The position numbers and the translations under genes were made by a program. Of a DNA stretch of 64,000 nucleotides, positions 4,689 to 7,490 are shown in pieces. The stretch comes from Terriglobia bacterium (lineage in GTDB: Bacteria; Acidobacteriota; Terriglobia; 20CM-2-55-15), in the NCBI GenBank assembly GCA_965218585.1, contig CBDCLE010000001.1, forward strand, positions 64,001 to 128,000, read 5' to 3'. The stretch's first letter is position 1, and each line of letters starts with the position of its first letter. Under the pieces are notes generated by a model. The model saw only the letters and a list, made by a program, of their open reading frames with translations, had not been told where the DNA came from and did not search any database.

Positions 4689-5274
4689 AATTCTCTTAGG
4701 CATAAATTAATTATGTATAGGAGCAGTGATAATGCAAGGGAAATGAAGGGTAAGCCACTCTCTGACCTCCTTGCCGATTTATGAAACGGCTCAGTATTAC
4801 CGATATCAGACAATGGGTGATCGTTGGGACACTCCTGTCGGGATGACGCAGTCTGAAGAGTCTGATTGCTTCTAGACCTCTCCTTTCGTAGACTTTTCCA
4901 ACATTACCACTGGCCCCACCACTGTGGCTGCCACGATTCTCGGACTGCCTGGAGGATTCATGAAATCGAAACTGACGCTCGTGATTTTTTCGTGTTTATT
5001 GATCAGCACCGTCACGCTTGGCCAGCAGGGTCGGGGACGAGGTGGGGGGCAGCCCGCCCGAGGCCTGATGGACGTCACGGTTGAGGCTATTCCCGGCGTC
5101 GTGGCTGCAGGAGCCGAATGGTCGTCTGTTTGGAGTGGATGGGGCATCGTGGCCGACGGCATTATGGGAACTTCGGACGGCAGCCTGCTTGTTGCCCAGG
5201 AAGATCTGAATACGGTCATGAAGCTCGATACGAACGATCAAGCATCTGTCTTTATAGCGAATACGCGTTCTATG

Positions 5275-5654
5275 GAAGGGGCTGTCAAGAGAAACACGTC
5301 CCCGCCGAGCGGACCACCGGACCCAACACTGTCGTGGCAGCCAGCCCCTGTCTCCGTTGAGACGAACTGTTGATCCGGCATCGCAGAGAAGTCGATCACT
5401 CATCACAACGTGGTGTGGTTTCGAGAAACTGAAAAGCGCAAAGGGGTCGTGATTGCCGACCACGGTTCTATCTGAGCCTCGAGGGCTATCGCTTTTCCAG
5501 GTCGTGCGAGGGGGGATAGAGTATTACATGGGCCTTCAGCAAGCGCTGTGTGCCAACCGCGTATCGGATCCTCACCCTCGACCCTACCGTTCCGACGCCT
5601 CACCGACGACGAGCGGTCGAATGCCTCGCGCTGTCGGCAGAAGTCTGGAAACGG
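5275..5654 (-). ncRNA. putative bridge RNA / seekRNA of the IS110 element (boundaries approximate)
   Basis: Non-coding end carries CGTGGTG (5409-5415) and CGCGTAT (5558-5564) matching the target halves, and GTTCTAT (5465-5471) and GCTAT (5485-5489) matching the donor junction. Confidence 0.6.
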
Positions 5655-6716
5655 CTATGTCGCCAAGTTCAGTTTCTTTGCGTTAAACGTGTCTCCTTTC
5701 TTCCACATCTTCAGTGCGGTCGCTGCAATCTTCCTCGCCAGTGTCAGCCGAGCCATCTCCTTACGCTTGCCGTCTTTCTGGAGCCCCTCCAGGTAGCTTT
5801 TCCAAGGTTCGGCCCCCATGCCTCCGGTCGCCGCCCCGATGAACACATCTTTCAAACGTCGGTTGCCGTTGCGGTTCAGTCCCCGCGTGGCGATCGGCTT
5901 TCGACGACGTACCACACGACTCCCTTCCTGCTCATACTCCGCACTCATGTGCATTGCCACGGCCAGACCGCTGTAGTTCCAGAGCTGGCGTTTGGTTCGA
6001 AATCGATGCGGGGTGTCCCCCGTCGCTACAATCAAGGCGCAACGTATCGGTCCCAACTGGGGAATCGTCTGCAATATCCCCACCGCACGATGCTTGCGGC
6101 TCTCGGTTAACATCGCCAGCTTCGCTTTTTTTCTTAACCCTCTCAGATGATCCAGCTCCTCATACAACCATCCGGTACGCCGCCGTGCACCGGTATTGGC
6201 GAGCTGTTCGATCCAGTGTTCCCGCTGCGATGGGAGGTAGACGCCGTGGCCCGGCGTCCGGATCCCACGTCCTCGATACATTGCCTTGATCCGAACCATC
6301 GTCCGCTGCGTATCCAGGGTCAAGGTCTCATATCCGCGGACCAGTTCTTTCAACGTCCGCGTCGCATCGTGCCCGTGGTAGACCGACCGCAGCCATCCGG
6401 CCCGGAGCAGCTCGGCCAGTTTCAGGGCATCCACCCGGTCGGTCTTGGACCCGTCACTGAGCAGTTTGTTCCGTCTGGGATCACACACGATCACTTCGCT
6501 CACATATCCCCGGACCACGTTGTAGAGCCATTCGGCCTGCGTGGTTTCTTCAAACGTCACGTGCAGCTCACCACTCAGACTCTCCAGCAAATCAATGATT
6601 GGCCCGGCCTGGGTCTCTACGATCTTTTCCCAGACCAGTTTGCCGTCTGCGTTTAAGACCATCACCACCGTCGTTGCCTGGTGCACATCCATGCCGATAT
6701 ACTTGGCCTGTTTCAT
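5655..6716 (-). CDS. IS110 DEDD recombinase/transposase
   Basis: IGMDVH, TFEE and KTDRVDA catalytic motifs; C-terminal IPQLGPI...SGL...HMSA region. Confidence 0.93.
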   Translation of the reverse strand: MKQAKYIGMDVHQATTVVMVLNADGKLVWEKIVETQAGPIIDLLESLSGELHVTFEETTQAEWLYNVVRGYVSEVIVCDPRRNKLLSDGSKTDRVDALKLAELLRAGWLRSVYHGHDATRTLKELVRGYETLTLDTQRTMVRIKAMYRGRGIRTPGHGVYLPSQREHWIEQLANTGARRRTGWLYEELDHLRGLRKKAKLAMLTESRKHRAVGILQTIPQLGPIRCALIVATGDTPHRFRTKRQLWNYSGLAVAMHMSAEYEQEGSRVVRRRKPIATRGLNRNGNRRLKDVFIGAATGGMGAEPWKSYLEGLQKDGKRKEMARLTLARKIAATALKMWKKGDTFNAKKLNLAT

Positions 6717-7490
6717 TTACGTGCTCCTTTGTCTTTGAATTCAACGCAGCTACGTTGAATGGGTTGTTGTCGGGAGATTTTCCTCCTGGCAACAGCCGAC
6801 AAAGGGGCGTCCTTCCTTATAGCGTGGTGGAGGGTCCTTGTCAGCAGACAGGCAGGGTCGGATCCTGGCCGTCCAGAGACTGGTTCCTCGTACGATTGGT
6901 GTTCTTTCTCCTGAGCCTAAGGTTGTGGCGGACACTTTTAATAACGCTCCGGTTGGTGACCTTGGCCGTCTCAACGATCTGGCTGCCGACAGCAGGGGTG
7001 GGGCATATTTTACCGTTGCGGGCGGTGCGTACTATGCAAGTGCGGGCGGCGAGGTTACGCAATTCGGCGAGGATTTGCGTACGAACGGTATCGTTCTAAA
7101 TCGCGATGAGGATGTGCTCTACGTGACTAACCGGGGTGTTGTCGTGGCGTTTGACGTCCAGGTCGATGGTTCTGTCGCCAACCAGCGTGACTTTGCGACA
7201 CTCCAGGACGGAGGTGGTGGAGATGGGATCGCAATCGATGGCGAGGGCCGCCTCTACGTGACCGCAGGCCCTGGAGTCCAGGTGTTCAGTGAGACAGGAG
7301 AGTATCTCGGCGTCATCCCGACACCGAGGAGAGTTATCAGTACGGCCTTCGCCGGAGAGGACAAGAAGACGCTCTACGTTGTCGGCATGGGTTTTCTGAA
7401 CCCCGATGGCAGTGAATATGATGGGATGTCGATGACGATTTTCAAACTTCCCATGATTGCCCAGGGATACCTGGGCCGCGCGAAATAGAA

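Follow-up and report, generated by a model that had tools for sequence, protein, structure and literature searches.

An insertion sequence that stands at 16 places in one genome raises the question of how it chooses where to insert. The element studied here splits a gene in a 64,000-nucleotide stretch of DNA from a Terriglobia bacterium (contig CBDCLE010000001.1, positions 64,001 to 128,000; this whole stretch is referred to as the window, and its own numbering is used below). Judged by its sequence, the element is an IS1111-type member of the IS110 family, rather divergent and with an intact recombinase gene. RNA-guided IS110/IS1111 recombinases are under development as programmable DNA-insertion tools, and detailed knowledge of them comes mostly from IS621, ISCro4 and a small number of IS1111 members from enterobacteria or pseudomonads. 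We found it very probable that the element selects its insertion site by means of an RNA from its own 3' non-coding end. We observed the copy number, the ends, the empty site, the target logo, the fold and the co-variation between guides and sites.

The proposed RNA would be read from the minus strand of the 3' non-coding end and would form two stem-loops that each contain an internal loop. In the first of these loops, the 5' side (GAUACGCGGU, 5565-5556) would pair with the top strand over the core and the right target arm, and the 3' side (GUAAUAC, 5527-5521) would pair with the bottom strand over the left target arm and the core, the two target guides overlapping on the 2-nt core, which reads AC in transposase sense. 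The 3' side of the second loop (AUAGAAC, 5471-5465) would pair likewise with the right end of the element and the core. The DEDD recombinase would act on the target and a circular copy of the element, exchanging their strands at the core. We infer that the RNA is made, is bound by the recombinase and directs the reaction.

The two sides of the target loop track the insertion sites

The genome contains 16 near-identical copies of the element (loci L001-L016). Over the 1553 nt compared between end anchors, there are 3 variable internal positions, and 2 copies have a one-base length change; this near-identity points to recent movement of the element. The flanks of the 16 sites gave a logo of ATACGCG-K and CGT-A/T-T/G-TAC on the plus strand, and the preferred target in transposase sense is GTAAT-AC-CGCGTAT. 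The reverse complement of target guide 1 is the right-end junction consensus of the 16 copies, and target guide 2 is their left-flank consensus. About 30 nt separate the two guides, which face each other across one internal loop. A search of the genome for unoccupied consensus sites found one with two mismatches and none that came closer.

An earlier reading of the window, made from its letters only (the sequence-only reading), had asked for guide-target covariation across copies and homologs. The comparison was run on 12 RNA types from 9 genomes, out of 17 distinct loop combinations, with the loops taken from the alignment and the flanks from the loci, and the 12 types track their own sites. 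Left out were 3 truncated copies that share guide 1 with type B and 2 combinations with no findable flank; three weak covariance-model matches had no target loop. For guide 1 (reverse complement against core plus right arm), the mean exact match was 7.25 nt in cognate pairs vs 3.40 nt in non-cognate pairs, and the cognate guide was the best in 12 of 12 targets. For guide 2 (identity with left arm plus core), the corresponding means were 5.11 and 3.15 nt, and the cognate guide was the best in 7 of 9 targets. The cognate sum was reached by 0 of 20000 permutations for guide 1 and by 1 of 20000 for guide 2, counts that overstate independence because the 12 types are mutually related (several of them close). 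The seekRNA pattern is present here, with two segments that match opposite target strands, overlap at the insertion point and change with the target. Natural guide swaps in the relatives show that the predicted guides are exchangeable.

The same data bear on the idea that the conserved 125-nt block is a regulatory structure of the recombinase gene (a terminator, a stability element or an antisense target) and not a guide. The block does lie directly downstream of the gene, and conserved T-rich tracts follow it. However, a regulatory structure gives no reason for loop letters to track the flanking target DNA, and a terminator scan found no minus-strand site at the block. We consider this explanation extremely unlikely.

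Environmental relatives differ from the window at 5523, 5528 and 5529, and the A>T change at 5523 falls inside guide 2. One contig of DNA run X15, read past the left-end junction (6825), has TTTAC, not ATTAC, and would match a guide 2 with A>T at 5523. These two observations come from separate contigs and are only a hint that the TTTAC flank is linked to a changed guide 2. Like that of type A, the target of type G (GTATAG-TC-GCCTATAC; L081-L085, L071 and L080 in G039) is in part palindromic about the core.

A two-loop scaffold is conserved among relatives

On the minus strand, the fold of 5600-5440 gave two stem-loops in succession, both containing a distal hairpin and a large internal loop: a predicted target-binding stem-loop at 5579-5508, followed by a predicted donor-binding stem-loop at 5507-5455. 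Because this single-sequence fold was not more stable than shuffled sequences (z = 0.65), the case for an RNA structure rests on the relatives, which were collected from DNA searches and with a covariance model built on nine sequences. The same scaffold was found in 13 of 35 genomes of the bacterial family and in 4 of 11 genera (the window genome counted). In the model-based alignment of 22 relatives, itself fitted to the model and made of mutually related sequences, 93.7% of cells were paired, vs 33-54% with slid partners; 7 pairs had changed on both sides, and 0 of 500 shuffles reached the observed values. The stems hardly vary, and the types differ in both sides of the first internal loop.

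An RNAalifold consensus on 9 sequences mis-paired the distal target loop, and a hand-set structure was used instead. The outer distal helix of that structure fits types C-H and is out of register for types A and B (66.7% paired). One X15 contig skips 149 nt at 5304-5454, CACCACG (5415-5409) included (the letters between are not known), which points to a variable or dispensable segment downstream of both stem-loops.

The donor loop follows the right end

The donor guide changes with the right end of the element: AUAGAAC goes with ATAGA-AC, AUAGAUC with ATAGA-TC and ACAGAAC with ACAGA-AC (a T-to-C change in L074). Two truncated copies (L051 and L070) disagree with this rule. The sequence-only reading had taken ATAGAAC (5471-5465) for a donor guide, and that assignment holds, the motif being right end plus core and following the right-end changes. 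It had also proposed ATAGC (5489-5485) as the partner donor guide. The motif does stand at these coordinates and may be a guide; it straddles the donor loop and the conserved distal stem, is invariant and shows no consistent co-variation with the left end. Two registers for a left-end guide were tried, AGCG with CGCT and AUAGC with GCTAT, and neither was supported by types J and M.

Both ends of the element carry an arm of a subterminal inverted repeat, a 9-nt match with 1 mismatch (the IS1111 criterion is about 7-17 bp), set back from the core by 4 nt at the left end and 2 nt at the right end. A 9-nt repeat alone is not significant (265 of 2000 shuffles), and both arms change together in other types (GAAAGG, GAGAGG). 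These repeats bring in the possibility that the site is chosen by protein or by DNA-DNA pairing of the ends, with the non-coding matches as by-products such as carried-along copies of ends and flanks. The repeats are conserved at both ends and are probably read by the protein. Moreover, the donor-loop letters are equal to the right end and nearly invariant, and because of this they are alone no proof of RNA pairing. The target loop argues the other way: from type to type its sides are replaced as a whole on a scaffold that hardly varies, and each side matches its own flanks, on opposite strands and with an overlap at the core. The same pattern is reported as experimentally shown for ISEc11, ISPa11 and ISKpn4 in the sections of PMC11187229 on these elements. 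Site choice by protein or by the DNA ends is therefore very unlikely in our judgement, and an RNA guide remains the preferred explanation.

The insertion adds no bases and shares a 2-nt core with its target

The empty site was seen directly in one contig in each of 3 DNA runs from 3 studies (X10, X11 and X15): 5264 is joined to 6822 with 1557 nt skipped, and 4 letters fit both sides. In three orthologous genes of the split host gene (SGL genes, L026-L028, found by tblastn), a single codon separates the residues on either side of the insertion. Both results confirm, for the window copy, the empty site that the sequence-only reading had rebuilt; its rebuilt circle junction is correct for this copy too. 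The inserted length is 1557 bp, made up of a 1555-bp body and one 2-nt core.

The core could not be placed from the window copy alone because 4 bases (GCGT) are shared there. The flank logo of the 16 copies cannot place the crossover either, and the ends were placed by homology to the C-type element. The insertion target of that element is the loop of a palindromic repeat (REP-like) in genome G001 (flanks of L029-L035), and two unoccupied copies of this target (L049 and L050) were found in the same genome. Occupied vs unoccupied sites of type C show a plain insertion, the last 2-3 nt of the target left arm being the last nt of the right end. Wherever a type gave data, the target left arm and the right end of the insertion sequence share only the letters of the 2-nt core; types A, B and J have AC as this core, and types C, D and G have TC. 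On the plus strand of the window this comparison across families gives GT, one base off the CG that had been proposed as the core.

A frame test agrees with these ends in most copies. Removal of 1557 nt gave a longer junction-spanning frame than removal of 1558 nt in 12 of 16 copies (for example, 206 vs 34, 148 vs 54 and 143 vs 89 codons), with 2 ties and 2 copies that favour 1558. Another boundary model, in which CG was duplicated and the insertion sequence included one more variable base, was dropped after the C-type empty target and the frame test. The insertion adds no duplicated bases, and donor and target have nothing but the 2-nt core in common.

Core position 2 varies at the right-end junction, with C in 11 copies and A in 5, and the left-end junction has AC in 16 of 16. 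The copies with A are spread over three internal lineages defined by single-nucleotide polymorphisms, so core position 2 seems to be set at each insertion and not inherited, and a mismatch at this position is apparently tolerated. None of the empty sites of the five variant-core copies was readable in the same-genus genomes searched with the L013 and L007 flanks, whose matches ended short of the junction or were only 63-83% identical.

The window copy sits at the poorest of 16 sites

The site in the window is the worst match of the 16. The other 15 copies match at least 8 of 13 arm positions, and the right arm of the window site fits only with a one-base slip. The 8-mer TTATAGCG of the left end (6817-6824) also occurs in the host gene at 5252-5259, 8 nt from the right-end junction. 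The host-gene TTATAGCG is native coding sequence (F-I-A), with Y-L-E or F-A-T at this place in orthologues. The poorly matching window site thus carries a look-alike of the left end beside the insertion point.

The sequence-only reading had recognized an IS1111-type IS110 element with an intact recombinase and readable guides in its non-coding end, and this part of it is supported. Its four motifs are all present on the transposase-sense strand at the coordinates given for them. One of them, ATACGCG (5564-5558), is part of target guide 1 and is kept by the 16 copies and the relatives. The layout it drew from these motifs was different: one large target loop with CACCACG and ATACGCG as guides about 150 nt apart and with the donor loop nested inside. 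Both 7-mers do match the rebuilt site of the window copy in the expected strand sense. However, when the 387-nt non-coding end was shuffled with its dinucleotides kept, at least two 7-mer matches to the proposed 13-nt site turned up in 233 of 2000 shuffles. CACCACG lies outside both conserved stem-loops, within the interval that the X15 contig skips, and matches the flank of the window copy only; it also occurs in B_G007 and s_G010, whose flanks differ. The left-arm consensus of the other 15 identical copies is GTAAT, and CCACC is absent there. The fold and the 22 relatives give consecutive loops like those of bridge RNAs, not nested ones, with the guides 30 nt apart. The atypical window site led to a false second guide drawn from a single copy, and the nested layout is rejected as having almost no chance of being correct. 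From the window copy alone the matches are weak as a test against chance, and the signal is real only with the 16 copies and the relatives, which keep ATACGCG and ATAGAAC and reject CACCACG.

Points that weigh against an RNA guide

Besides the relatedness of the types and of the aligned sequences, and the unremarkable stability of the single fold, several results weigh against the RNA-guided reading. Guide 2 is poor in types B and J, which have 3-nt exact matches at one site each. The window site itself, taken in register with the guides and the arm consensus, agrees with them at 1 of the 5 positions of the left arm and 1 of the 8 of the right arm. Across types, the 5' side of the donor loop, where a left-end guide is expected, shows no consistent co-variation with the left end. 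An Rfam 15 search of 4800-7300 with E up to 10 found no matching family, only a chance-level small nucleolar RNA (E = 1.3). On the recombinase, NCBIfam NF033542 scored 129.5 bits vs a cut-off of 140 (alignment 6-342 of 343), a score that we read as the mark of a probable divergent IS110 member, not of a non-member. Finally, contigs of RNA library X18 (a metatranscriptome) cover 5267-5667 and parts of the recombinase gene; these contigs carry no information on strand or ends and the library may contain DNA, which makes them no proof of transcription.

The recombinase and the split host gene

The non-coding region downstream of the recombinase gene is 386 nt long (5654-5269), vs 107 nt upstream (6823-6717). 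The element has the IS1111 features of a longer downstream non-coding region, subterminal inverted repeats and a specific site without target duplication. In the recombinase, PF01548 matched the N-terminal DEDD/RuvC-like domain with 63.1 bits (cut-off 29; 3.4e-17), and PF02371 matched the C-terminal domain with 37.2 bits (cut-off 21.3; 3.9e-9). Its sequence matches in the PDB include ISCro4 (9t56, 1.6e-9) and IS621 (8wt6, 4.2e-7). The N-terminal domain aligns with that of ISCro4, and its D, E, D..D residues, which fall on those of ISCro4, are invariant in the 8 true recombinases (7 relatives plus the window), and the 7 relatives have the same recombinase length. The type C recombinase has 64% protein identity to the window recombinase, and identity to any IS110-family gene in the plasmid collection is 28% at most. 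All 8 recombinases have the serine of a GL-x6-S stretch (GLAVAMHMSA), which HMMER places differently against ISCro4. The IS110-family catalytic serine is described in the motif section of PMC11187229 as part of a G-x-P-x4-S-G type motif.

The two halves of the host gene (4924-5268 and 6824-7488) form a single frame after removal of 1557 nt. The coordinates of all features are collected in Table 1.

Table 1. Features of the insertion sequence and its surroundings in the window
Feature	Position	Strand	Basis or remark
Host gene split by the insertion, SMP-30/gluconolactonase/LRE-like	4924..7488	+	Pfam PF08450 on the 3' half, tblastn, uninterrupted contigs
Core dinucleotide, right-end junction, GT plus / AC transposase sense	5267..5268		Letters shared across families
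Insertion sequence body, 1555 bp	5269..6823	-	16 genome copies, contig skips, homology to C-type ends
Subterminal inverted repeat, right-end arm, TATGGAAGG on plus	5271..5279		9-nt match to left arm, 1 mismatch
TTGACA, -35-like hexamer facing out of the right end	5283..5288	-	Read by eye
CACCACG, chance match, not a guide	5409..5415	-	Outside stem-loops, poorest of 16 sites
Predicted bridge/seekRNA core	5455..5579	-	Fold and alignment of 22 relatives
Putative donor guide AUAGAAC, 3' side of donor loop	5465..5471	-	Identical to last 5 nt of right end plus core
Donor loop 5' side, AAAAGCGAU	5488..5496	-	Fold; expected place of left-end guide
Putative target guide 2, GUAAUAC, 3' side of target loop	5521..5527	-	Identical to left arm plus core; would pair with bottom strand
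Putative target guide 1, GAUACGCGGU, 5' side of target loop	5556..5565	-	Would pair with top strand, core plus right target arm
Recombinase gene, 353 aa, DEDD/RuvC-like and Transposase_20 domains	5655..6716	-	Pfam
Subterminal inverted repeat, left-end arm	6811..6819		Match to right-end arm
Core dinucleotide, left-end junction, GT on plus strand	6824..6825		AC constant in 16/16 copies

Candidate promoters at the ends

The outward-facing TTGACA of the right end is present in 9 of 11 aligned non-coding ends, with TTGACT in E_G003 and CTTGAC in s_G001. In a circle, it would stand 18 nt from the TATAAG (6821-6816) of the left end, and TTGACA-N18-TATAAG may serve as a circle-junction promoter. The arrangement resembles a junction promoter that is described for ISEc11 in part of PMC11187229. 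Our promoter scan gave no minus-strand site and did not call TTGACA-N18-TATAAG because its rule for the second hexamer needs a final T. The flank of the window copy contains a -35-like CTGACA (6839-6844, minus strand) 17 nt upstream of the TATAAG of the element (6816-6821). CTGACA and TATAAG, noticed by eye and not listed by the scan, could form a hybrid promoter for the integrated recombinase gene.

Truncated relatives keep the RNA region

Some relatives are 5'-truncated pieces that keep the RNA region (and the right end where it was found), with no left end within 1500 nt: L036 (G001), L051 (G002), L054 (G017), L059 (G004), L069 (G041), L070 (G007) and L072 (G013). Their break points vary between element positions 751 and 1247, in loose clusters at 751/757, 1055-1074 and 1245/1247, and those at 1245/1247 fall exactly at the start of the RNA. 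The genomes G001 and G002 hold B-type truncated pieces, and their full elements are of types C and D. With regard to mobility, the truncated pieces look like remnants.

Comparison with known systems

The lineage provides a set of natural guide swaps on a single scaffold, with 12 RNA types and their sites. It combines a clean two-loop RNA in an IS1111-type element with 16 fresh insertions that show what degree of mismatch is tolerated, and is a useful data set for rules on guide length, core choice and off-target insertion. A more far-reaching proposal, which we think is rather unlikely, is that the lineage forms a distinct compact IS1111-type branch with two simple internal loops on a near-invariant scaffold, re-aimed at least 10 times in one bacterial family. 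Such a branch would accept a right-arm pairing slipped by one base, as at the window copy, and a mismatched core position 2, as in 5 of 16 copies, and its truncated pieces of RNA plus right end might guide resident recombinases of other types in trans.

The core of IS621 is CT. The core in the window lineage is AC or TC, unlike that of IS621. Otherwise, IS621 and ISCro4 resemble the window element in having a DEDD recombinase and an RNA with target- and donor-binding internal loops (as outlined in portions of PMC11208160 and in PDB entries 8wt6 and 9t56), in which each loop reads both strands around a 2-nt core (portions of PMC11208160). The window element differs from both in that its RNA would lie in the right end and not the left, the order of the guides is reversed and the subterminal repeats are long (9 nt).

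The window element also resembles ISEc11, ISPa11 and ISKpn4. According to the parts of PMC11187229 that describe them, these elements also have a long downstream non-coding region, subterminal repeats with terminal extensions, no added bases and a specific target. The same parts report two short RNA matches in the same order, overlapping in the target, relatives redirected by replaced matching letters with the stems unchanged, and a recombinase of about 330-350 aa. In IS1111 seekRNAs, as set out there (Siddiquee 2024, PMC11187229), the top-strand match lies 5' of the bottom-strand match, and the two overlap in the target. The window lineage differs in its target, GTAAT-AC-CGCGTAT, its recombinase is distant from the plasmid-borne IS110-family genes compared with it and lies below the NF033542 cut-off, and the likeness is one between published descriptions and a lineage known from sequence alone.

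In the portions of Durrant et al. 2024 (PMC11208160) that deal with IS1111, bridge RNAs are predicted in 93% of IS1111 elements, and the donor-binding nucleotides of many IS1111 orthologues are placed in a multi-loop. Unlike these orthologues, the window element has a predicted donor loop that is a simple internal loop. The truncated pieces recall ISPpu9/Ssr9, in which there are also RNA-bearing copies without a recombinase gene (Pares-Guillen et al. 2025, PMC12288879). However, the Ssr9 RNA is described there as not required for transposition and as moving as its own circle, whereas the pieces in the window lineage look like remnants. The element of the window is a new example of a known mechanism, and it leaves that mechanism unchanged.

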